From an uncultured Gammaproteobacteria bacterium (GTDB lineage: Bacteria > Patescibacteriota > Patescibacteriia > UBA11705), in the NCBI GenBank assembly GCA_964413735.1, contig CAYPSS010000003.1, forward strand, positions 106,626 to 170,625: a DNA stretch of 64,000 nt, given 5' to 3'. Made by a program: the position numbers and the translations under genes. The notes under the pieces were generated by a model. It saw only the letters and a list, made by a program, of their open reading frames with translations. It had not been told where the DNA came from and did not search any database. Shown here piece by piece: positions 1,834 to 51,392 of this stretch (position 1 is the stretch's first letter; every line of letters begins with the position of its first letter).

Positions 1834-3099
1834 TTATTTTAATTTTATACTATGGAGGAATTGGCTGTATTTATCGGTAAAATATAGAGTTGATCCGTCG
1901 GCACTAACTTGAATTTGTTCAATATTATATTCATATTGCGGTTCAGCTACAAAACTGACTGAACCACTGGCCAAATCTACTCGATAAATATAATCTCCTA
2001 CATTATCGGCCAATTCTCTGACCCAGCCGGATCCGGTTGGTAATTCTTTGGGCACCGCGCAATACATGGTTGTGTTATTTTGGAAGGTGCACTTATCCGC
2101 CCAAGTATTTAAATTCAAACTAATATTGTTGTAACCGATTCGATCACCCGAGGCCTCAACAATGTGAAGTAATGGTTTATGTTCACTTTGACGATTTTGG
2201 GCACTATAAACAATGTGTGAACCACTGGGGTTATATTGATAATCAACATTGTAGCCATTAATATCAATGGCTCGAAAATTTTCTTGATTGGTACCGATTA
2301 AATAAATTTTACTGAAATCATAAGTGGAAGAATCATTAAAAGTGCCAACAATATTATTGGTGGGTGACCATTGGACCGTCACTTTGTTGGCTTGGGTTCC
2401 CAAGTGTTCCAGATATTTTTGAGCCGAACCATCGGGATTGGAAATCGCTAAAAATCTTTTTTGGGTATTGGCGTTCATGTCTTTGAAAGCAATTTGTGAT
2501 TCGGTGGAATTAAAATTAAATTCTGTCCAATCTTTGGGCAGGGTAACTTGACGATCGGTTTTAAAGTCATAAAAAATATTTGATCCATCAGGGAATTCCA
2601 AAATCGCTTTTTCTGATTTTGGCGCCCAAGCAATATCTTGCACCCCATAAAATTTGTCTGGGGTTAGGGATATTTTTTCACCATCGGATGTTAAACGATA
2701 AAACTCGCCGGTGTCAGAATTATATGACAGTAAATTATTTCCGGTTGAATCAATTGATAGGTGATTGTTTTTTTCTTGAATCAAGGTATTAACTCTGGTA
2801 ATTCCGCCATTGGCGATTTCTGATACGGTGGCGGATGGTTCAAACGGTTCCACTTGAGTGATGGGTGGGGTGATGGTGGGAATTTCCACATTGGTGGGTA
2901 GTTGTTCTTCTCCGGGTGGTCGTTCGCCCGATACCGGTAATTCGCCCGGCTTAATGCCCGTTGTTGGTTCAATCGGAGTCGGTGGCGTAGGGAGGAAGAA
3001 TAGCCAGTATATTGCCAATCCAATGGCCATACAAATCAAGAAAAACCCTACAATTAAAAGAATTTTTTTGGTGTTACTTAATTCCTGAAAATTAAACAT
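1834..3099 (-). CDS. Membrane-anchored TolB-like beta-propeller protein
   Basis: N-terminal TM anchor (ILLIVGFFLICMAIGLAIYWLFF), Pro/Thr-rich linker, then repeated PDGS/SPDGS/SADGS blade-like segments as in TolB/WD40-like periplasmic propellers. Confidence 0.5.
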   Translation of the reverse strand: MFNFQELSNTKKILLIVGFFLICMAIGLAIYWLFFLPTPPTPIEPTTGIKPGELPVSGERPPGEEQLPTNVEIPTITPPITQVEPFEPSATVSEIANGGITRVNTLIQEKNNHLSIDSTGNNLLSYNSDTGEFYRLTSDGEKISLTPDKFYGVQDIAWAPKSEKAILEFPDGSNIFYDFKTDRQVTLPKDWTEFNFNSTESQIAFKDMNANTQKRFLAISNPDGSAQKYLEHLGTQANKVTVQWSPTNNIVGTFNDSSTYDFSKIYLIGTNQENFRAIDINGYNVDYQYNPSGSHIVYSAQNRQSEHKPLLHIVEASGDRIGYNNISLNLNTWADKCTFQNNTTMYCAVPKELPTGSGWVRELADNVGDYIYRVDLASGSVSFVAEPQYEYNIEQIQVSADGSTLYFTDKYSQFLHSIKLK

Positions 3100-3112
3100 A
3101 TTTTTATTTTAT

Positions 3113-3721
3113 TTAAACAATATTAAACCAACTTAAAATTTCTAATATTGGTAACAAAACAATGATAATAATAATCACAATCAATATGCCCCAGCCCAAA
3201 ATGGTTAAACAAGTGGGGGCAACGACCATAATGATGCGTTTCATGATCATTTTTTTCACTGCTTTTTTGGCTTGTTCTTTGGCCATTTGAACGGCCATTT
3301 GCTTGGCATTTTCCATAGCATCTTCTTCATCTTCCGTTTCATCTATGACCGGCATTTCGTCTTCTTCATCATCTTCATCATCAGTATAACTTTCTTCGTC
3401 TTCAAAAGTTGGTTCACTGTCTGTTGTTTCCAATTGTTCGGCCATCATTTCGTTAAAAGTCGGAGGGGTCCCAATATTAGGTTGAGAAAATGGGGTTGGC
3501 GGTGAGCCATAGTTTGCTCCATAGGGAGTTTCCGGTTCCGGATTTGTTTGAGGGTAGTCGGCTGTTTCCGGTTCAGCAGGTTGTGGTGTTGATTGCGGTT
3601 TTTCTTGTGATTCCAAAAAATCTTCATAGTCTTGACCGTATGGAGTTTGATTGCTTTGAGGTGATACTGGTGGTGGTTGAGGATTTTGTCCGGTAGTATT
3701 GGAATTGTTATTATCCGGCAT
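3113..3721 (-). CDS. Low-complexity Pro/Gln/acidic protein with C-terminal TM helix (hypothetical)
   Basis: ORF with a Pro-rich N-terminus, a long acidic stretch (DDEDDEEDE) and a C-terminal hydrophobic helix (IIMVVAPTCLTILGWGILIVIIIIIVLLPILEIL). No recognisable family. Confidence 0.45.
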   Translation of the reverse strand: MPDNNNSNTTGQNPQPPPVSPQSNQTPYGQDYEDFLESQEKPQSTPQPAEPETADYPQTNPEPETPYGANYGSPPTPFSQPNIGTPPTFNEMMAEQLETTDSEPTFEDEESYTDDEDDEEDEMPVIDETEDEEDAMENAKQMAVQMAKEQAKKAVKKMIMKRIIMVVAPTCLTILGWGILIVIIIIIVLLPILEILSWFNIV

Positions 3722-3724
3722 AGA

Positions 3725-6115
3725 TCAAGATTTAATTTTGTTTTTTGATCTTTTATTAAGTTCAATGATTAAATTTTCCACTTCTCGATCGATTATTTGC
3801 CGAACTGTTCGGGCGCCTTGGCCAATTTTTTGCGATTCTTGTGCCAAGCGGGATAAGTTTTTACTGAGTTTGGTTATGTTTATCAAAGATTTTTTTTCTT
3901 CCAGTTGTTTTAAGTGTTTTTTGAATATTTTTTGTAGTGTAATTGCCTCTAAGTTTTCAAATACAATAATTTTATCAAGGCGATTGATAAATTCGGGGCG
4001 AAAATGTTTTTTTGCTTCCTCAACAATTTTTTCGATTAAGGCTGAATTTGTTTGTTGGTTACCAAAGCCCCAAGAAATATTTTTGTTGAATAAATCGGCG
4101 CCTAAATTGGCGGTCATAATAATAATCGTGTTTCTGAAATTAATTTTTTTGCCGGTGGCATCGGTTAAATAGCCGTCTTCTAAAATTTGCAATAATAAGT
4201 TTAAAACTTCCGGATGTGCTTTGTCGATTTCATCAAATAAAATTAAACTGTAAGGACGTTTTTTAATGGCGTCGGTCAGTTTGTTTTCTTCGCGATATCC
4301 CACATAACCGGCCGGTGCCCCAATCAGCTTTGAAGCGTTGAATTTTTCACTGAATTCCGCCATGTCAATTCGGATGAATGATTCTTGATCGCGAAATAAT
4401 TTTTCCGCTAAAATTTTTGCGGTATAAGTTTTGCCCACTCCGCTTGGTCCTAAAAATAGAAACGAGGCTTGCGGTCGATTTTCATCTTGCAGTCCGAGTT
4501 TTGATTTTTTTAATGAATTGATAATTGTGGTTAGGGCTTTATCTTGACCGAAAATTTCATTTTGTAATTTAATTTTAATTTTATCCAAGGTTTGCCAATC
4601 GTTTCCCAGTAATTCACTGATCGGAATTTGGGTTTTGGCTGAAATGATTTCCTGTATGGTTTGGGCGTCGACGATTGGTGGATTTTTTGTTAATTGAAGA
4701 TCGCGAGTTTTTTGTAATTTTGTTAACCGTTTTTTAAGAATGATTTGCTCGGCTTTTATTTTAATGGCTAGGTTGAAGTTTTCATTTAGAACAGCTTTTT
4801 CTTTCTCTGTATTCAGCTTGTTGATTTCCAATTCCAAATTATTGATATTAGTAAATAACTTATTATTATTCATCTGTATTTTTTGTTTGGCGGCGGCTTC
4901 GTCAAGCAGGTCGATGGCCTTGTCCGGAAACAATTTATCTTGTATATAGCGTTTACTTAAATTTAAGGCCGTAATAATGGCCGCGTCGTCAAATTTTACC
5001 TGGTGGTAATTTTCATAATTGCTCTTTACCCCAAATAAAATTTCTTTTGTTTCGGTGATTGTTGGTTCGGTTAAAATTATGGGTTGGAACCGTCGTTCCA
5101 GCGCCGCATCTTTTTCAATGAATTTTTTATATTCTTCCATGGTGGTGGCGCCAATACAACGCAGTTGACCACGCGCTAAGAGTGGTTTGAGCAAATTTGC
5201 CGCGTCCAAACTGCCATTACTGGAACCGGCACCGACAATATTATGTAATTCATCAATGAATAAAATTGTCTGCGGGTCATTTTTGATTTCATCAATAATT
5301 TCTTTGAGACGATTTTCAAAATCACCGCGATACATGGTTCCAGCTACCAAAGAGCCGAGGTCCAGAGAAATGATTTTTTTATTTTTCAAAATATTCGGGA
5401 CTTCGCCGTTTACGATTTTCTTGGCTAATCCTTCCACTAATGCGGTTTTCCCTACTCCCGGATCACCTAAAATCAAGGGATTATTTTTGTCTTTACGACA
5501 TAAAATTTGAATTAAACGATCAAGCTCCTGGTCGCGTTTAATAATCGGGTTGATTGATTTTTGATATTCAATATCCGTTAAATCAACGGAAAAATATTTT
5601 AATGTCCCTGAACCGGGTTTGTTCGTAAAAGGGTCTTGACCCTGTAAAATTAAATTTTCCGGGTTATTGATTTGGGTTAAATGCGTATCGCCTTTTAATA
5701 AATTATCTAAGTCATTTTTTAATTTTTCAAGATTGATTTTATAATTTTGTAAAATATATTTTATCAAATATGGCGGGTCGTCGAGTAATACGGCCAAACA
5801 ATGTTCCGTACCGACAAAAGTGTGTTTTTGACTAAACGCCAAATTAAAAGCACTGATCAGCAAGTCTTCGATGGTTTTGATTCGTGATTTCGATTCTATT
5901 GATGGTAGATTAAGAGAAAGCAAATCAGCTAATTTTTTTTCATCATTATTTTTGTCTTGAAGAAAAAATTTATTGGCCAAAGTGTTCGGTTCATGAAATA
6001 AGGCAATAATAAAATCATTCAATTCGATGACGGAACGATTTTTTTTAAGGGCGAACTTTTTCGCTTGTTCCAAACAGTGGCGCAAATTGTCGGATAGTTT
6101 TTCTAAAAAATCCAT
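3725..6115 (-). CDS. clpC: Clp-family double AAA+ ATPase/chaperone (ClpC/ClpB type) with Clp N-domain
   Basis: Two Walker A motifs (GDPGVGKT and GPSGVGKT). Clp_N-like N-terminus. Short coiled-coil middle domain between the AAA modules, closer in length to ClpC than ClpB. 796 aa. Confidence 0.85.
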   Translation of the reverse strand: MDFLEKLSDNLRHCLEQAKKFALKKNRSVIELNDFIIALFHEPNTLANKFFLQDKNNDEKKLADLLSLNLPSIESKSRIKTIEDLLISAFNLAFSQKHTFVGTEHCLAVLLDDPPYLIKYILQNYKINLEKLKNDLDNLLKGDTHLTQINNPENLILQGQDPFTNKPGSGTLKYFSVDLTDIEYQKSINPIIKRDQELDRLIQILCRKDKNNPLILGDPGVGKTALVEGLAKKIVNGEVPNILKNKKIISLDLGSLVAGTMYRGDFENRLKEIIDEIKNDPQTILFIDELHNIVGAGSSNGSLDAANLLKPLLARGQLRCIGATTMEEYKKFIEKDAALERRFQPIILTEPTITETKEILFGVKSNYENYHQVKFDDAAIITALNLSKRYIQDKLFPDKAIDLLDEAAAKQKIQMNNNKLFTNINNLELEINKLNTEKEKAVLNENFNLAIKIKAEQIILKKRLTKLQKTRDLQLTKNPPIVDAQTIQEIISAKTQIPISELLGNDWQTLDKIKIKLQNEIFGQDKALTTIINSLKKSKLGLQDENRPQASFLFLGPSGVGKTYTAKILAEKLFRDQESFIRIDMAEFSEKFNASKLIGAPAGYVGYREENKLTDAIKKRPYSLILFDEIDKAHPEVLNLLLQILEDGYLTDATGKKINFRNTIIIMTANLGADLFNKNISWGFGNQQTNSALIEKIVEEAKKHFRPEFINRLDKIIVFENLEAITLQKIFKKHLKQLEEKKSLINITKLSKNLSRLAQESQKIGQGARTVRQIIDREVENLIIELNKRSKNKIKS

Positions 6116-10639: not shown

Positions 10640-10667
10640 TTGACAAATTTAGTGGATTTGCTATAAT
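10640..10667 (+). promoter_or_regulatory. Sigma70-like promoter (TTGACA-16-TGcTATAAT) for GC-rich ORF
   Basis: Consensus -35 and extended -10. Only about 8 nt of leader before ATG 10682, with no SD. Confidence 0.45.
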
Positions 10668-10681
10668 GCGTTTGCTGCAAA

Positions 10682-10990
10682 ATGGCAGTCGTTCTTCTCT
10701 TTCAGGAGGTTTCTGTGGAAGGCGTGGCCAGTGTTCCGGTTGTTCAGGGTGAGGTTCCGGCGCCGACCGAGGCTCCTCTGCCGCAGTTGTCGGTGGATCA
10801 GGAGATTCAGATTCGGAATGTCCTACGCGACATCCTCGAGCGCTGCGAGCGCCCGAGCGACGTCAAGCGTGCGGTCATCCGGCGGCTCGGCGGGAAGTAC
10901 ACTTTCCCGGCGCCGACGGTGATCTGCCGTAAGTCACAGCGACTGGTGGCGATCAAGATCGGCGACCAGGAGATCAGCGTCGAATTGTAA
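10682..10990 (+). CDS. GC-rich 102-aa hypothetical protein with foreign-like codon usage (possible DEK-C-like helical domain)
   Basis: Very GC-rich compared with flanks. Strong GC3 periodicity (GAC ATC CTC GAG CGC TGC GAG CGC CCG AGC GAC GTC AAG). The other two frames give Arg-rich junk. Motif EIQIRNVLRDILE...SDVKRAVIRRLGGKY. Flanked by promoter and terminator. Confidence 0.5.
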   Translation: MAVVLLFQEVSVEGVASVPVVQGEVPAPTEAPLPQLSVDQEIQIRNVLRDILERCERPSDVKRAVIRRLGGKYTFPAPTVICRKSQRLVAIKIGDQEISVEL

Positions 10991-10997
10991 TCTTGAT

Positions 10998-11022
10998 AGC
11001 AGATCAAATGATCTGCTTTTTT
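10998..11022 (+). terminator. Rho-independent terminator
   Basis: agcagatca-aa-tgatctgct perfect stem followed by tttttt. Confidence 0.65.
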
Positions 11023-11057
11023 GTTTGATTGATGTTTTTCACGTTTTATTTTTTAAT

Positions 11058-11370
11058 ACTTGTCCCACTTGTTTTGCTTATTACTTTCTTGCTTACAGCT
11101 TTCTTTATTCTACAGCTCAGACTCTGAAACAAGTTCAGAGTGAGAATATGGTTTTTATTTTTATTCCCTCATTTCCTAATTCTTAATCCCTTTTAATACT
11201 CGTTTCACTCGTATTACTTGTCCCACTTGTTTTGCTTATTACTTTCTTGCTTGCCGCTTTCTTGATTCAACAGCTCAGACTCTGAAACAAGTTCAGAGTG
11301 AGAAGATAACTTGTTTTACTTGTCTTGCTTATCACTTTCTTGCTTACTACTTACTTGTTGTCTGCTTCGA
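11058..11370 (+). repeat. Direct repeat array: two approximately 88-bp copies (11058-11145, 11216-11303; about 84/88 identical) plus a degenerate third copy, each containing a hairpin
   Basis: The copies begin acttgtcccacttgttttgcttattactttcttgctt and end cagctcagactctgaaacaagttcagagtgaga. Inner inverted repeat actctgaa/ttcagagt with loop acaag. Period about 158 bp. No ORF. Confidence 0.7.
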
Positions 11371-45707: not shown

Positions 45708-47102
45708 TTAATATTCGGAAAAAGAGGGAAGATTACCACCATGATTTTTGTCCAAGGTTTTGAAACTGGCTTGGGCGGAATCAAAGAAAAAGCGAATAAT
45801 GCCGGTGGGACCATTACGATGCTTGGCAATGTGTAATTCGGCAATTGATTTTTCTTCGGGGGTTAAATCTTCTATATTGTAATTACGATCGGCGGATTTT
45901 CGATAAATAAACAGCACAATGTCCGCGTCTTGTTCAATTGAGCCTGATTCGCGCAAATGAGCTAATTTCGGGATAGCCGGTTTACTCATTTCCACGGCGC
46001 GCGATAACTGTGATAAGGCTAGAACCGGGACATCGAGCTCACGAGCGATTTGTTTGAGTGACCGGGTTATTTCCGCCACTGCCTGTACTCGATTTTCCGC
46101 GCCGGTACGAGCTTCCATTAATTGTAAATAATCAATGACAATTAAGCCAAGTCCATGTTCCATTTTTAATCGTCTGGCTTTGGTGCGAACATCAATCACA
46201 TTGATAGCAGCGGAATCATCAATAAATATCGGAGCTTCTGATAAGATGCCCATGGCATGGCCCAAACGAGGGAAATCATCGGAGTCTTCACGTGTCGAAA
46301 GTTTACCGGTTCGAATTTTCCATAAATCAATGTTGCTTTCGGCGCATAGCATACGATCAACCAATTGTTCCTTTGACATTTCCAAGCTGAAATAGCCGAC
46401 CGGAATTTTTGATTTCACGGCTACTTGACGAGCAATATCAAGGGCGAGAGATGTTTTACCAACCGAGGGGCGGGCGGCTAAAATAATTAAGTCTGATTTT
46501 TGTAATCCGGCTAAATGAGTATCCAGATCAGGATAACCGGTTGGTACGCCACGCATTTGCCCGGCATTTTTATGTAAATCATCTATTCGATCAAAAGCAT
46601 CATTCAAAACATTTTTAATGGGAATAAAAGACTTTTTTTGGTTTTTTTGTGAAACGGAAAAAAGTTCTTGTTCAGCATCATCAATGATTTTGTCTACTTC
46701 ATCATCTTCTTTGTAGCCAAGTTCATTGATTTTATTAGCGGCATTAAGTAGACGACGCAGAGTGGCTTTTTTGGTAATAATTTTCGCGTAATTGGTGGCA
46801 TTACTGGACGTGACAACCGTATTGGTTAATGCCACTAAATAAGTTTTTCCACCCACTTGGTCCAATAGTTTTCGCTCTTCTAATAAATTGGCCAAAGTTA
46901 AAATATCAATCGGTTCATGAGCAGAGTATAGGTCCAGCATGGCGGAATAAATTTTGTTGTGATTATCCTTGTAAAAATCGTCAGCCGTAATTATGTCAGC
47001 AATCCGATAAAATGCTTCGTTATCAATTAAAATAGAGCCGAGTAATGATTGTTCGGCTTCTACATTTTGGGGTGGAATCTTGTTTAAGAGATTGTCTGAC
47101 AT
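45708..47102 (-). CDS. dnaB: Replicative DNA helicase DnaB
   Basis: N-terminal DnaB domain, Walker A ARPSVGKTSLAL, RecA-like core. 464 aa, no intein. Confidence 0.9.
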   Translation of the reverse strand: MSDNLLNKIPPQNVEAEQSLLGSILIDNEAFYRIADIITADDFYKDNHNKIYSAMLDLYSAHEPIDILTLANLLEERKLLDQVGGKTYLVALTNTVVTSSNATNYAKIITKKATLRRLLNAANKINELGYKEDDEVDKIIDDAEQELFSVSQKNQKKSFIPIKNVLNDAFDRIDDLHKNAGQMRGVPTGYPDLDTHLAGLQKSDLIILAARPSVGKTSLALDIARQVAVKSKIPVGYFSLEMSKEQLVDRMLCAESNIDLWKIRTGKLSTREDSDDFPRLGHAMGILSEAPIFIDDSAAINVIDVRTKARRLKMEHGLGLIVIDYLQLMEARTGAENRVQAVAEITRSLKQIARELDVPVLALSQLSRAVEMSKPAIPKLAHLRESGSIEQDADIVLFIYRKSADRNYNIEDLTPEEKSIAELHIAKHRNGPTGIIRFFFDSAQASFKTLDKNHGGNLPSFSEY

Positions 47103-47186
47103 AATATTTCATAGATATTTTATCGTGAATTGAATATCGGGGCAAGTTAATAAAATGTGAATAGAAAAAACGTAAGAACCTTACTA

Positions 47187-47215
47187 TTGACAAAATATTG
47201 TTAATATGTTATAAT
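47187..47215 (+). promoter_or_regulatory. Consensus sigma70 promoter (TTGACA-17-TATAAT) driving the GC-rich RNA element
   Basis: ttgaca at 47187-47192, 17-nt spacer, tataat at 47210-47215. Confidence 0.5.
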
Positions 47216-47221
47216 GTTCGC

Positions 47222-47597
47222 GCAGTATCCACATGGAAGTGGAATGTGTGTGTTTTCCTCGAACGTCGCTGGAGGGAGGCCGTGATCAGAGGTCCGCCGT
47301 AACCAAGCAATTGGTTACAGCCCAAAAGCAGTCTGGGCTTGATAATGCGACTGTTAGTTTTCGAGGCGCGGGGTCAGTTGGCCGAATTGGCGCCGGATTT
47401 AACTCGAGAACGACTGTTTATAACAATTTGGCAAGGAGGAAGGGTGACAACGTTGCTGGAACCGTGCTAAAAAGAAGGGTTAGCGACGGACCTGAGCCAA
47501 GTCGTCGTCGTAAATCAGGCCGCATTCGGGGGAGGAACGGTGAGAACGTGGCTGATGACGTATTAATTTGAACCAATGTCTGAGACATTGGTTTTTT
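47222..47597 (+). ncRNA. Candidate structured ncRNA (about 375 nt, GC-rich; class unresolved, RNase P RNA is one possibility)
   Basis: GC-rich block in an AT-rich genome between a consensus promoter and the terminator aaccaatgtctgagacattgg+tttttt. The embedded 112-aa ORF has no GC3 bias, rare AGG/AGA/CGA codons and a low-complexity basic product. Perfect 8-bp stem with GNRA loop (guaaccaa-GCAA-uugguuac). Nested helices ucgag[ggcgc..gcgcc]cucga. Hairpin agccca..ugggcu. Long-range complements cgucgcu/agcgacg and aggucccg-like agguccg/cggaccu. Confidence 0.5.
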
Positions 47598-47624
47598 CGT
47601 TTTAAAATTATTATTTTCAATAAC

Positions 47625-48488
47625 TTAATTTTTGTTTTGTTGGTGATATAAGTCAATGGTGTTTTTCAATAAAAAAGCTATGGTCATTGGGCCAACGCCT
47701 CCCGGAACCGGTGAAATAAAAGAAGTTTTGAGCATGACATTATCAAAATCAACATCACCAACGGTTTTGTCGCCCAGTTTATTGATTCCAATATCAATTA
47801 CCACTGCGCCTTGTTTAACAAATTCATTGGTCACATATTGTGGTCGTCCGATAGCCACAATTAAAATATCTGCGTCGTGACATTTATTTTGAGCGTTTAG
47901 ATCATCGGGGTGAACATATTCAACAATATTTTTTTGTCCATATAAATAATTAAATGGTATGGCGATTAAATCATGGTTGGCCAGCACGACAATTTTTTTG
48001 TTTTCCAGGTTAATTTTGGTTTCTTGAATCATGGCATCAACGCCCAGGGTCAAAGGAGATAAAATACTTGGCTTTCCTATTTTGATTTTGGCTAAGTTTT
48101 CCGGATGAAAGCCATCAACATCTTTGTTGGGAGCAATGGCATTGATAATTTTAGATTCATCTAATTTTTCCGGTAAAGGCAATTGGACTAAAATGGCGTT
48201 GATTTCCGGGTCTTGATTTAGATATTGAATCACTTCGATAATTTGTTCATCCGAATAATTATCATGGAATTCATACAAATGAAAATCAATTCGCACTTTA
48301 TCGCAAGCCTTTTTTTTCAGGTTAACATAAAGTTTGGACGATGGATTGTCACCAACTAAAATTACGGCTACGCCGGGGGCGATTTTTTCTTGGAAAATTT
48401 GCGCGCAAGTTTGAGTATTGATGATTTCCGCCAGCAATGCCCCGTTAATTATTTGAGCGCCCAGTTTATCTTTGGGAATTTTCAGCAT
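47625..48488 (-). CDS. folD: Bifunctional methylenetetrahydrofolate dehydrogenase/cyclohydrolase
   Basis: Typical FolD length and motifs (GxGxxVG-type NAD(P) loop PGGVGPMT). Confidence 0.9.
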   Translation of the reverse strand: MLKIPKDKLGAQIINGALLAEIINTQTCAQIFQEKIAPGVAVILVGDNPSSKLYVNLKKKACDKVRIDFHLYEFHDNYSDEQIIEVIQYLNQDPEINAILVQLPLPEKLDESKIINAIAPNKDVDGFHPENLAKIKIGKPSILSPLTLGVDAMIQETKINLENKKIVVLANHDLIAIPFNYLYGQKNIVEYVHPDDLNAQNKCHDADILIVAIGRPQYVTNEFVKQGAVVIDIGINKLGDKTVGDVDFDNVMLKTSFISPVPGGVGPMTIAFLLKNTIDLYHQQNKN

Positions 48489-48489
48489 A

Positions 48490-49731
48490 TTAATTGAGCT
48501 CCGGATAAAGAGGAAATTTATTTGTTAGTTCAATTACTTGATTTTTGATTTGCGATAATTTTTCCGTATTTTCATAATTGGTAATTACTTGATCAATCAA
48601 TTCAGCGATTTGGTGCATTTCATTTTCCTTCATGCCTCGAGTGGTTAGGGCTGGTGTCCCCAATCTGATTCCTGAGGGATCCATAGGCCCGCGCGGATCG
48701 TCGGGGATAGCGTTTTTATTCACCGTAATTCCGGCTAGATCCAAAGCTTCTTGGGCTTGTTTGCCGGTAATGTTTTTATTGGTTAAATCAAGTAAGAGTA
48801 AATGATTGTCCGTCCCGCCAAAGCAAATGATGTAGTTTTTTTGTTTAAATTCATGTTCTAAAGTTTTGGCATTTTTTATAATTTGCTCACAATATTGTTG
48901 AAATTCCGGTTGTAGGGCCTCTTTGAAAGCAATAGCTTTGGCCGCAATATTATTTTCGTGTGGACCACCTTGCAAACCGGGGAAAACCGCTTTGTCAATT
49001 TTCTTGGCTATAGCAGATTTACACATAATCATGGCGCCACGCGGACCACGTAAAGTTTTGTGGGTCGTGGTGGTGACCACATCAAATATTGGGACCGGAT
49101 TTTCAAGTTGTTTGCCGGCAATTAACCCAGCAATATGGGCAATGTCGGCCATGGTATAGGCGCTCACTTCATCAGCAACAGCTTTAAATTTTTGATAATC
49201 CAAATGTCGGGAGTAAGCGGAAAAACCGGCTAAAATTAATTTTGGTCGATGTTCTAAAGCCATATTTCGTAAATTATCAAAATCAATTGAGCCATCGGCC
49301 GTTGTTTTGTATCTGACAAAATTAAAAACTTTTGACATGTGGGTTACCGGATGACCATGGGTTAAATGACCACCATGACCAAGGTCCATTCCAAGAATGG
49401 TGTCACCTGGTTCTAGTAGCGCAAAATAAACCGCAATATTGGCCGGGGCGCCGGATAATGGTTGGACATTAACATGTTCAGCCCCAAATAATTGCTTGGC
49501 ACGATCAATTGCCAGTTGCTCAATTTTATCAATGTTTTCATTACCACCATAATAACGATTGCCCGGATAACCTTCCGAATATTTATTGGTAAGAACACTG
49601 CCAAGCGCTTCCAGCACAGCCATGGAAACAAAATTTTCCGAAGGGATCATTTCCAATCCTTGGCGTTGTCGTTGAATTTCCAAATCAATATATTGTTTAA
49701 CCTCGGGATCAAATTGAGCGATATTTTTCAT
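48490..49731 (-). CDS. glyA: Serine hydroxymethyltransferase
   Basis: PLP-lysine region TTTTHKTLRGPRG, conserved SHMT N-terminus. 413 aa. Confidence 0.9.
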   Translation of the reverse strand: MKNIAQFDPEVKQYIDLEIQRQRQGLEMIPSENFVSMAVLEALGSVLTNKYSEGYPGNRYYGGNENIDKIEQLAIDRAKQLFGAEHVNVQPLSGAPANIAVYFALLEPGDTILGMDLGHGGHLTHGHPVTHMSKVFNFVRYKTTADGSIDFDNLRNMALEHRPKLILAGFSAYSRHLDYQKFKAVADEVSAYTMADIAHIAGLIAGKQLENPVPIFDVVTTTTHKTLRGPRGAMIMCKSAIAKKIDKAVFPGLQGGPHENNIAAKAIAFKEALQPEFQQYCEQIIKNAKTLEHEFKQKNYIICFGGTDNHLLLLDLTNKNITGKQAQEALDLAGITVNKNAIPDDPRGPMDPSGIRLGTPALTTRGMKENEMHQIAELIDQVITNYENTEKLSQIKNQVIELTNKFPLYPELN

Positions 49732-49878
49732 AAAATTTTATCATCAAATAATTAGATTTAGAATGCCTTTATTATAGCAAAAAAAAGTAATAATTCAATA
49801 TAACAATGTTGTTGACAAAAGATATGGGTTGTGATAAGTCTAAGATACTGTTCTTTGACTCTCCCACAAGGAGGATCT

Positions 49879-50577
49879 ATGATTTCGGATAAACAAGGTG
49901 AGAAATGGGTAAGAGATGTTTTGAAGAGAATGTCTATTGTTCGTCAAGATATTCATGATCAAGAAAAAACTTTAATCAGCAAAGTTGATGAAGCAAAAAT
50001 CAAATTTGAGAAAGCTTACCTTGCATTAGCAACGTTTATGGATAATATGACGGAAGAGCGTTGTTTGCAAGATGGTCAAAATATGACTGAGTTTATCGAT
50101 TTGTCTCAGGAAGCAACTTCGGCCGGTCAAGAATATGTGCAGGTAGTGGAAGAACTCGGTAAATCTTCCGGTCAGGTTGTGAAAGTAACTGAGGCAATGG
50201 AACATTTGGAAGGGGTGCGTGATTTTCTGGCTCAAGGTTTTCCTGAATATATGGCTGGAGTGCCGAAAACTGAAGAATTTGATTTTTCCAAATTTCGATT
50301 GATTGATTTTGTGATTTGTGCGGTAAAGGAAGGAAGTGATTGGCATACTCATTTTTATCTGCATGATATTTTGCCTGTTTTGCAAAGCTGGGGCATTCAT
50401 ACTTGGACAATTCATAAAGTTAGGGGAGTTTTGCGCCGTGAATGCAATCGACAATCTGATGCTTTTTGTTATTATGTATTGGACAGAGGAGAAGCTTGGG
50501 GATTAACTGAACATGGACGAAAACAATATAAGGTTAACTTGCAAGAATTGCATAGTCATTTGAAAAGCCAGGTTTAA
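49879..50577 (+). CDS. Hypothetical protein, paralog A (N-terminal coiled coil, C-terminal HSWG-containing domain)
   Basis: ATG 49879 preceded by aaggagg. Paralogous to 50688..51392 (shared QGEKW/QGKQW and LQSWGIHTWT/LHSWGLTHWT motifs). Confidence 0.55.
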   Translation: MISDKQGEKWVRDVLKRMSIVRQDIHDQEKTLISKVDEAKIKFEKAYLALATFMDNMTEERCLQDGQNMTEFIDLSQEATSAGQEYVQVVEELGKSSGQVVKVTEAMEHLEGVRDFLAQGFPEYMAGVPKTEEFDFSKFRLIDFVICAVKEGSDWHTHFYLHDILPVLQSWGIHTWTIHKVRGVLRRECNRQSDAFCYYVLDRGEAWGLTEHGRKQYKVNLQELHSHLKSQV

Positions 50578-50687: not shown

Positions 50688-51392
50688 ATGACAGAAGTTA
50701 TTTCCAATCAGCAAGGTAAGCAATGGTTAACGCAATTGCTCAAACGACTGGAATTGCGACGTGAACAATTGGATCGGAAAATCCAAGAATTGGTTAAGCA
50801 GTTGGAAGTTGCCGAAGAACATTATGAAAAAGACATTGCTGCTTTTTCGATTTTGAGTAATTCCCGTATGCGGATTGCCTCAGGTGAATTGAATCTGGAT
50901 GTAGTGCAAAATTGTATTACAGTTTCCGAGAACATTGTGAAAAACGGCCAGGCTTGTTTATCCATGCGTGAATCATATCGCACATTGATGAATGATTTCC
51001 AGCAGGTTGATGCGCAAATGGCCATGGCTCGGCAGTTGATGGAACAAGAATTTGATGCTCTGCCGGAGTTGCCACCAGAAGATAGTGCGCCAAAGAAGCA
51101 TCGATTGATTGATGAAGTATTGTGCGCTTTGGTGGCATTTCCTAAAAGTAAAGTTTCTATTGGTGGTGATCTATCTCAAATTCTTAAGGTTTTGCATAGT
51201 TGGGGGTTGACTCATTGGACACCGGAAAAGCTGGCCAAGGCCTTGGACAATCAGTTTAATCGAAAAACTGAAAAACTTCTTTATAAGGTTTATCGTGAAA
51301 ATAGAAATTATTGGAGTTTATCTGTACAAGGGATTCAATATTATCAAAGGAACTTGTGTGAGCTTCACCAGAAACTGCTTAATCAGCAATAA
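50688..51392 (+). CDS. Hypothetical protein, paralog B
   Basis: Same architecture and the same upstream promoter/leader motif as paralog A. Confidence 0.55.
   Translation: MTEVISNQQGKQWLTQLLKRLELRREQLDRKIQELVKQLEVAEEHYEKDIAAFSILSNSRMRIASGELNLDVVQNCITVSENIVKNGQACLSMRESYRTLMNDFQQVDAQMAMARQLMEQEFDALPELPPEDSAPKKHRLIDEVLCALVAFPKSKVSIGGDLSQILKVLHSWGLTHWTPEKLAKALDNQFNRKTEKLLYKVYRENRNYWSLSVQGIQYYQRNLCELHQKLLNQQ

Follow-up and report, generated by a model that had tools for sequence, protein, structure and literature searches.

A stand-alone structured RNA beside dnaB in a Falkowbacteria-like Patescibacterium, and its candidate RGPP/RAPP arrest minigene

What is encoded by the short GC-rich (guanine plus cytosine) island that lies next to dnaB in an AT-rich patescibacterial genome? 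The window analyzed here is a stretch of 64,000 nucleotides (nt) of contig CAYPSS010000003.1, and its host is a Patescibacterium whose closest named relatives are Candidatus Falkowbacteria. At positions 47187-47597 the window holds a promoter, an open reading frame (ORF) of 112 codons and an intrinsic terminator, and a preliminary description of this DNA had read the element as RNA. The element is a stand-alone, structured RNA, predicted to be transcribed at a very high level; it belongs to no described RNA family, and the 112-amino-acid (aa) ORF is not its product. That the segment 47222-47597 (+) is under selection as such an RNA is highly probable. As to what it does, the best reading, to which we assign a probability of roughly 0.45, is that of a ribosome-arrest-controlled riboregulator, in which a six-codon minigene ending in Arg-Gly-Pro-Pro or Arg-Ala-Pro-Pro would stall a ribosome close to the 5' end.

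A promoter-to-terminator unit between dnaB and folD

The RNA unit sits between dnaB (minus strand, 45708-47102) and folD-glyA (minus strand, 47625-49731), and is delimited by two signals:

47187-47215 (+), sigma-70 promoter: TTGACA at 47187-92, a 17-nt spacer and TATAAT at 47210-15, with an extended -10 (TGtTATAAT)
47570-47597 (+), intrinsic terminator: an 11-base-pair stem (47571-81/47583-93), a loop of 1-3 nt and a run of six U

Both signals had been reported in the preliminary description, and both were confirmed. The promoter scores 12/12, with the TG of the extended -10 in addition, and is one of two perfect promoters in the entire window. Transcription is predicted to start at about 47222, giving an RNA of approximately 375 nt that ends at 47597 (+). 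The GC-rich island was also recovered (GC of about 0.50, against about 0.36 in the background), and its plus strand is G-rich, with a GC skew of +0.22 to +0.27. The earlier proposal of an independent promoter-to-terminator unit is thus supported by the perfect promoter and the terminator. Plus-strand genes resume at 49831, past the antisense folD and glyA.

Homologous DNA was retrieved by way of P0001 (the one protein-cluster match of the 112-aa ORF), its cluster members and the closest DnaB proteins. Homologues of the RNA were found on six other contigs, all from a narrow lineage (one genus-level). Four of these (L001, L096, L098 and L099) are about 95% identical to the RNA of the window; L082, from a genome whose DnaB is 91% identical, carries an RNA of about 80% identity, and L097, a partial 5' end, resembles L082 and forms a sister clade with it. 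In all six homologous loci the flanking gene or genes, as far as the contig extends to them, are the same. The four-fold degenerate sites of dnaB are 61% different between the window and L082, which is near saturation, whereas the RNA is 81% identical and includes invariant blocks of 34 nt (47342-75) and 21 nt (47319-39); this difference indicates strong selection on the RNA. At the place of the window terminator, L001 and L082 possess another hairpin followed by a U run; the sequence has been swapped while hairpin and U run were retained, and the function is therefore conserved.

Beyond this lineage no homologue was detected, either by nhmmer at 80 dnaB loci of GTDB species or in JGI metagenomes, where the invariant 18-mer GCGACTGTTAGTTTTCGA yielded six chance matches. 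A search of viral contigs with a 20-mer and with a degenerate minigene pattern returned nothing.

Within the lineage the RNA gene appears to be mosaic. L096, L098 and L099 combine an L001-like 5' half with a 3' end and terminator like those of the window, and the 3' end of the L001 RNA resembles that of the more distant L082; these sequence comparisons suggest recombination within the gene.

The minigene and the fold around it

A scan for short ORFs led by a Shine-Dalgarno (SD) sequence identified a minigene, absent from the preliminary description, in the 5' third of the RNA, preceded by two hairpins:

47222-47247 (+), 5' hairpin H1: stem of UCCAC (47228-32) with GUGGA (47239-43), variable loop
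47252-47280 (+), anti-SD:SD hairpin H2: GUUUUCCUC (47252-60) pairs with GAGGGAGGC (47272-80)
47282-47302 (+), ORF1, candidate arrest minigene: GUG AUC AGA GGU CCG CCG UAA, fM-I-R-G-P-P-stop

The minigene is conserved in 7 sequences. Its SD, GGAGGGAGG, is located at 47271-79, and the spacing between SD and start is 2-6 nt. L001, L096, L098 and L099 have an AUG start and the same MIRGPP-stop, with UAA; in L082 and L097 the sequence is AUG AUC AGA GCA CCG CCC UAG, which reads MIRAPP-stop. The five nucleotide differences all preserve the start, Arg, Gly/Ala, Pro-Pro and the stop (P=0.005 under 5 random substitutions). RAPP-like arrest peptides are recognized by an R-[A/G]-P-P (or RAGP/RAPG) core that lies at or near the C-terminal end of a short ORF provided with a ribosome-binding site, and such a core is found here. 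RGPP and RAPP have been described as the most versatile and robust arrest cores, refractory to EF-P, and as the tetrapeptides most strongly avoided in bacterial proteomes (Fujiwara et al., EMBO J 2025, PMC12992588). The Gly/Ala swap in the minigene switches between these two strongest reported cores. We consider it probable that the minigene is a functional translated element. The use of rare proline codons by the minigene was rejected, CCG being the commonest proline codon here. A covariance model of the 5' module (H1, H2 and the minigene), run over 753 kb, recovered only the window itself.

The hairpins upstream of the minigene are retained along with it. The H1 stem is present in all 6 sequences with loops AUGGAA, ACGGGA, GCGGAG and GCGGAA, and in L097 it displays one compensatory change (U-A to C-G). 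H2 has 9 pairs, with 96% of cells paired; its loop is clade-dependent and the changes in its stem are one-sided only. It masks the SD of the minigene: in the free RNA of the window clade, the probability of being unpaired between SD and start is 0.18-0.33. Downstream of the minigene, the following elements were delineated:

47296-47321 (+), variable, clade-specific GNRA hairpin: GCCGUAACCAA-GCAA-UUGGUUACAGC, overlapping the minigene stop codon
47319-47425 (+), conserved central domain: helices H4 (47327-33/47349-55), H5 (47357-65/47403-11) and H6 (47369-79/47385-95)
47434-47470 (+), repeat copy 1: AAGGAGGAAGG, then GUG and 8 codons (MTTLLEPC-stop), a duplicate of the 3' SD-GUG element
47501-47559 (+), 3' domain with closing helix H7: GUCGUCGUC (47501-09) with GGCUGAUGAC (47550-59)
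47531-47566 (+), ORF3: SD GGAGG (47531-35), GUG at 47540, MRTWLMTY-stop, the stop lying 4 nt before the terminator stem

The GNRA hairpin is present in the window clade, whereas L082 and L097 carry unrelated sequence there, with indels of +2, -1 and -1. The central domain differs between the clades at 9 positions in about 108 nt; H4-H6 are fully compatible with the alignment and almost invariant, and hence give no covariation signal. Repeat copy 1 is dispensable, as a 21-nt deletion in L082 (47425-45) takes it out. In ORF3 the SD and the GUG are retained in the window and in L082, and the peptide is not conserved, with lengths of 8, 9 and 22 codons. H7 exhibits two pairs changed on both sides (C-G to U-A) and three switches of the G-C/G-U or U-A/U-G type among four sequence types. 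In a further helix, H3, positions 47537-45 can pair with the Pro-Pro codons (47293-47300); it has one compensatory change, G-C to C-G (47299/47538), and is mismatched in L001 and L082. The alignment supports H1, H2 and H7, and H3 more weakly.

In the curated structure as a whole 98% of cells are paired, compared to approximately 40-46% in slid controls. Of the 60 pairs, 4 are changed on both sides, compared to 1.8 after shuffling, and a value this high came up in 5 of 500 shuffles; the alignment holds 5 distinct sequences and most helices are invariant. The folding z-score is -2.9 on the plus strand and -4.75 on the minus strand, and thus does not discriminate between the strands. All of the hairpins and long-range complements listed in the preliminary description are in the sequence, but conservation does not extend to all of them: in L082 and L097 the hairpin GUAACCAA-GCAA-UUGGUUAC is not conserved, three of the seven AGGUCCG/CGGACCU pairs are broken, and part of CGUCGCU/AGCGACG is lost.

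The same slot in related genera and the proposed arrest mechanism

Five lineages whose DnaB is 75-79% identical to that of the window were compared at the same locus. L001, L082, L083, L086, L087 and L100 all retain the perfect promoter in the same position. Three of the lineages have, between dnaB and glyA-folD, a perfect promoter followed by a GC-rich, ORF-less and terminator-ended sequence. The slot transcripts are:

L087, 2225-2838 (-): about 0.6 kb, GC-rich, ORF-less
L100, about 2200-3160 (-): about 0.9 kb, GC-rich, ORF-less
L083, 1005-2700 (-): about 1.7 kb, GC-rich, ORF-less
L086, 920-2480 and 2650-2866 (-): about 1.5 and 0.2 kb, with a HAD gene, not folD, as the convergent neighbour

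In the fifth lineage neither L101 (an AT-rich gap) nor L102 (a short gap) possesses the perfect promoter or a GC island. The transcripts of the related genera would be unusually long for bacterial non-coding RNAs. Rfam searches of L082, L083, L086, L087 and L100, at gathering and relaxed thresholds, returned nothing relevant, and when slot RNAs of different genera were compared by nhmmer the promoters aligned and nothing else did.

Several of these RNAs contain SD-led minigenes with related C-termini: MRVCFARGPP-stop in L100; MIRAPPS..., MPRDPP-stop and MRYIRDGP-stop in L086; and ...NPRDGPNVLM-stop in L083. RDGP (PMC10987492) and RDPP (PMC12992588) are also associated with arrest. Counted over the sense frames, the slot RNAs contain R[AG]PP 5 times, compared to 0.36 after shuffling. 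When 1485 SD-led mini-ORFs from 760 kb of related DNA were examined, this motif was confined to slot RNAs, while six control tetrapeptides were found 0-1 times each. The L100 minigene is independent of the window version. The MIRAPP module of L086 shares about 26 of 31 nt with the module of L082, and the two may therefore be one ancestral module.

Taken together, the 5' third of the window RNA is built much like a translational-arrest leader, with H1, then a CU-rich anti-SD hairpin over a strong SD, and then the six-codon minigene. In the proposed mechanism, H2 would open and a ribosome would initiate at the minigene, where it would arrest on the Pro-Pro codons; parked 60-90 nt from the 5' end, it could then alter the fate of the remaining RNA. 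The possible outputs include protection of the RNA by the 5'-proximal stalled ribosome, re-folding, and exposure of the invariant central domain; another would be the sequestration of ribosomes or of tRNA-Pro. In one variant of this scheme the stalled ribosome would break H3 and free the 3' SD-GUG, and translation of ORF3 (47540-66) would mask the terminator and lead to read-through. This variant is improbable, having a single compensatory pair in its favour and not being reproduced by constraint folding.

Several observations weigh against the arrest reading. Just fMet-Ile precedes the core, so that there is no N-terminal segment for the exit tunnel, and the arrest core alone has been reported to be insufficient (PMC12992588); a minimal RxPP is given as sufficient in PMC10951233, citing earlier work. 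The minigene is not encoded directly upstream of a controlled gene: the terminator at 47570-97 follows, the next plus-strand genes start at 49831, and the next plus-strand terminator is 3 kb off, past the antisense folD and glyA. As no same-strand gene follows, the classical role of an arrest peptide, the control of a downstream gene, has no obvious target. The slot RNA of L087 has no such minigene, and the independent occurrences of R[AG]PP number about 2-4 rather than 5, since to judge from the sequences the minigenes of the window and of L086 may share ancestry. The covariation is based on 5 distinct sequences. Finally, when the RNA was folded with the minigene occupied, the 3' SD-GUG was not opened (probability of being unpaired 0.47 versus 0.46).

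The alternative that survives best, which we regard as possible and somewhat unlikely, is a purely structural, untranslated non-coding RNA that binds a protein or base-pairs with a target. The minigene would then be an RNA motif, a purine-rich SD-like strand and a CCGCC helix strand, whose frame is open by chance. Such an RNA would account for the nucleotide constraint seen at all codon positions and for the masking of the SD by H2. The synonymous-looking change of CCG to CCC is compensated by C to G at 47538, which is an RNA pairing signal; furthermore, the proline codons of the minigenes are all CCG or CCC, and the nucleotide motif GNUCCSCCGUAR is shared. A purely structural RNA is less easily reconciled with 5 changes that all spare the start, R, [AG], P, P and the stop (P=0.005), or with L100, where an independent peptide context has the same C-terminal core and an SD. 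The RDPP and RDGP minigenes of L086, with SD and stop, and the absence of the control tetrapeptides (at most one occurrence each) likewise count against it.

If the arrest reading is extended to the related genera, the slot upstream of dnaB in a Falkowbacteria-like clade of the Candidate Phyla Radiation would encode stand-alone "arrest-minigene RNAs" of 0.35-1.7 kb, GC-rich, highly expressed and of fast turnover, that park ribosomes on RxPP/RDGP minigenes. The parking might report on the state of translation (Pro-tRNA, EF-P or ABCF activity) or tie up ribosomes or tRNA-Pro, the stalled ribosome switching an otherwise non-coding structured RNA. In this general form the proposal is speculative and we consider it unlikely.

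The location of the unit raises a different explanation, that of a cis-acting antisense element or insulator: the promoter would fire against glyA-folD(-dnaB), and convergent transcription or read-through antisense RNA, not the RNA fold, would be the function. In the window family and in L083, L087 and L100 the unit indeed runs towards folD and away from dnaB; in L086 it converges on a HAD-family gene, and the promoter is conserved while the transcribed sequence is swapped between genera. However, within the family the transcribed sequence is strongly selected, with invariant blocks, and a good terminator ends the RNA ahead of folD. The convergent neighbour is a different one in L086, and L101 and L102 do without the element. 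This explanation is therefore very unlikely.

Other features of the slot were recorded in these comparisons. GC islands upstream of dnaB at the 80 GTDB loci are mostly tRNA genes, and otherwise unrelated sequence. Among more distant Patescibacteria, one to three tRNA genes lie in a GC-rich gap upstream of dnaB in L038, L042, L047, L050, L057, L060, L068, L072, L073 and L075; stable RNA genes appear to occupy this slot quite generally. A 58-nt internal repeat is present in the L083 RNA (2034-2091 and 2451-2508, 84% identical), and each copy begins within an SD-led mini-ORF of 11 codons with V-A-A-D as the last residues before the stop (MTPVQDFVAAD and MMPFFEKVAAD; about 2528-2493 and 2111-2076, minus strand). 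In L102 a bAvd / 23S_rRNA_IVP gene directly follows dnaB (2676-3047); bAvd is an accessory protein of diversity-generating retroelements. L041, from Magasanikbacteria, has in its dnaB-upstream GC island a small, very basic ORF (3640-3800, minus strand; MGMKGAKKSGVVGYGKYKSPSSARQRAKQ...) that is unrelated to the window RNA.

Protein-coding readings, known RNA families and comparable systems

The possibility that the transcript is an mRNA for a small protein, either the 112-aa ORF (47233-47571) or the 41-aa ORF2 (47345-47470, MRLLVFEARGQLAELAPDL...), is remote. It draws on the unusual presence of a 112-codon open frame within 378 nt. For ORF2, the AUG and the stop (UAA to UAG) are kept, the 21 nt deleted in L082 leave its frame intact and a number of the changes are synonymous. 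The 112-aa frame, however, is broken in L082 by indels (+2/-1/-1, -21 and -2) and in L096, L098 and L099 by a 1-nt deletion, and its start is changed from ATG to ACG in L001. The 21-nt invariant block (47319-39) is in differing reading frames of the long ORF in the two clades. The ORF has no SD. As the preliminary description had remarked, it displays no third-position GC bias and is rich in rare AGG codons: GC varies little among its codon positions (0.57/0.52/0.46, where real genes have about 0.5/0.3/0.35), and AGG accounts for 5 of 16 arginine codons, compared to 6 of 142 in real genes of the window.

No convincing homologue with frame-consistent substitutions was found for the 112-aa ORF. 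A word-index search of 5.8 billion protein clusters produced one match, the 90% identical P0001, and an exhaustive phmmer search of 1.84 billion protein representatives gave only P0001 and two repeat-protein artefacts; Pfam has no family for this ORF, for ORF2 or for the neighbours. Substitutions between the window and L082, counted by codon position of the long ORF, are 21/14/16, whereas in dnaB they are 55/16/203. The 112-aa ORF was accordingly rejected as a gene, its frame and start not being conserved and there being no codon periodicity, Pfam family or real protein relative. The loss of the frame, the replacement of the terminator and the substitutions without codon periodicity indicate instead that a transcript with defined ends is selected at the level of its nucleotides, and bear out the earlier choice of RNA over protein: the homologues break the frame and keep the nucleotides. 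ORF2, which begins within helix H4, also has no SD or Pfam family. At 6 four-fold sites in the first 10 codons no change is seen, against an expected 61% (P of about 0.004), and the constraint there is thus not at the protein level. A practical corollary is that GC-rich "ORFs" in such genomes, for example the public calls of 105-112 aa, can be RNA genes.

A further scenario, decaying foreign GC-rich DNA caught beside a strong promoter (formerly that of a tRNA) and without a function of its own, would suit the hypervariable content of the locus, its GC-richness in an AT-rich genome and the tRNA genes found at this spot in more distant relatives. For the window family it is largely refuted by 81% identity where neutral sites are saturated and by a terminator maintained through sequence replacement. 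No similarity to plasmids or phages was found when the window RNA was compared to both by blastn, or the L083 RNA to plasmids.

Known RNA families were searched at several levels of stringency. Rfam 15 gave zero matches in the window at gathering score, and a relaxed search of 46900-47900 (E<=10) just two chance snoRNA matches, both outside the element. The bacterial (RNaseP_bact_a/b) and archaeal RNase P covariance models were unmatched, both at gathering score over the window and at E<=10 with relaxed filters over 46900-47900. ARAGORN identified neither a tRNA nor a transfer-messenger RNA (tmRNA), and there is no tRNA-like end. The P4 strands of RNase P RNA, CR-I GAGGAAAGUCC... and CR-V ACAGAA..GGCUUA, are universally conserved; upon inspection of the element, AAAGUCC and ACAGAA...GGCUUA were both absent. 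The "P4-like" and AAGGGUGA elements that had suggested RNase P RNA turned out to be a 24-nt internal direct repeat (47435-58 and 47531-54, 88% identical).

Three universal classes were rejected on these grounds, namely the absence of Rfam and ARAGORN matches and the nature of the "P4-like" elements. RNase P RNA, which the preliminary description had put forward as a candidate, has no covariance-model match, its supposed GGAGGAA..GGUGA elements belong to a repeat of which one copy is deleted in L082, and the RNA is confined to a narrow lineage. The exclusion of tmRNA stands, ARAGORN and the Rfam tmRNA model both being empty. 6S RNA folds as a rod of about 180-200 nt around a large central bubble; the present RNA, at approximately 375 nt, folds multi-branched with unpaired 5' and 3' ends and has no Rfam match. 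A very divergent member of one of these classes is hardly credible: its size (about 350 nt), a perfect promoter of the kind usual for stable RNA genes, the G-rich structured sequence and the fact that rnpB, ssrA and ssrS were not found in the window by Rfam or ARAGORN would fit, but with the E<=10 search of 1 kb empty, no tRNA-like end and the repeat in place of P4, an RNA missing at the syntenic loci of 80 related genomes and replaced by unrelated RNAs in sister genera is a poor fit for an essential universal RNA. The alternative suggestion of a novel lineage-specific non-coding RNA agrees with an element unmatched in Rfam even at E<=10. A CsrA sponge was also rejected, the GGA count being close to that expected from base composition by our own estimate.

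Among characterized systems the element would work most like RAPP/RGPP arrest leaders together with short leader-peptide attenuators, and it lacks two features by which these are defined, a supporting segment at the N-terminus and a controlled gene downstream. Ribosome-arrest peptides are cis regulators in front of the gene that they control, and a tunnel-filling N-terminal part had been taken to be necessary. With ApdA, ApdP, ApcA, CruR, the Streptomyces upstream ORFs and SecM (RAGP) the minigene shares the R-[A/G]-P-P C-terminal core, the short SD-led ORF and the structured leader; both of its variants are the cores found most robust and EF-P-refractory in PMC12992588, and the related RDPP and RDGP motifs are present in the RNAs of neighbouring genera. 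The known peptides, however, range from tens to hundreds of residues and as a rule have a signal or membrane segment as well as an N-terminal part that contacts the tunnel, whereas here there are 6 codons and no localisation signal. They also lie directly upstream of the regulated gene (sec, yidC or metal genes), in contrast to a terminator-ended, stand-alone RNA.

Leader-peptide attenuators and minigenes include ErmCL/ErmDL, CatA86L, TnaC, the MgtP proline ORF and the lambda bar minigenes. They resemble the present element in having a tiny SD-led ORF in a structured leader, with ribosome position, not the peptide, as the signal, and in a 3' mini-ORF that ends beside an intrinsic terminator. 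They differ in controlling an adjacent resistance or metabolic gene, or, for bar, in being toxic by peptidyl-tRNA drop-off; no ligand, antibiotic or target is evident here. In 5' stabilisers (the stalled ribosome of ermC, the STAB-SD of cryIIIA) an SD-like element or a stall similarly keeps a ribosome or 30S subunit close to the 5' end, which fits a Gram-positive-like RNase J/Y degradation. The known cases stabilise mRNAs, and the RAPP minigene of L086, near the 3' end, is a misfit for a pure 5' roadblock.

The remaining parallels are less close. Like the orphan RNAs OLE, GOLLD, ROOL, raiA and HEARO, this island is GC-rich and poor in ORFs, lies in an AT-rich genome and has a promoter, a terminator and strongly conserved blocks of its own; unlike them, it has no covariance-model match, a far narrower distribution and a minigene that looks translated. 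RNase P RNA is similar in length, in its strong promoter and in its G-rich structured sequence, and differs in its CR-I/CR-V (P4) motifs and in being conserved beyond one narrow lineage. Dual-function small RNAs (SgrS/SgrT, RNAIII/hld, SR1/SR1P) are also stand-alone regulatory RNAs that hold a short ORF, but their functional peptides are of 26-43 aa or more, whereas the 6-residue product here probably does not matter, and the signal would be the stall as such.

Should the arrest reading be true, this would be a minimal natural arrest element, and the first one linked to an RNA that stands alone, not to a gene downstream. To our knowledge the regulatory RNAs of Patescibacteria are almost unexplored, and one conserved promoter slot holding unrelated ORF-less transcripts of up to about 1.7 kb provides a testable entry into RNA regulation and ribosome management in ultra-small bacteria.

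Three further observations were made elsewhere in the window. At 10640-11024 the other perfect promoter (TTGACA-16-TATAAT) lies ahead of a small GC-rich gene of 91 codons, which starts with GTG at 10715, is preceded by an AGGAGG SD and is followed by a hairpin terminator. GC at its third codon positions is 0.77; the gene matches no Pfam family and, unlike the RNA unit at 47187-47597, looks truly protein-coding. Just downstream (11051-11357) is a 96-nt direct repeat in two copies, 94% identical, with a partial third copy of 52 nt, and both full copies include the inverted repeat CTCAGACTCTGAAACAAGTTCAGAGTGAG. Past folD and glyA, two adjacent plus-strand ORFs of about 240 aa (49831-50577 and 50688-51392) have a strongly positive GC skew and no Pfam family, and equivalents of both are present in L001.

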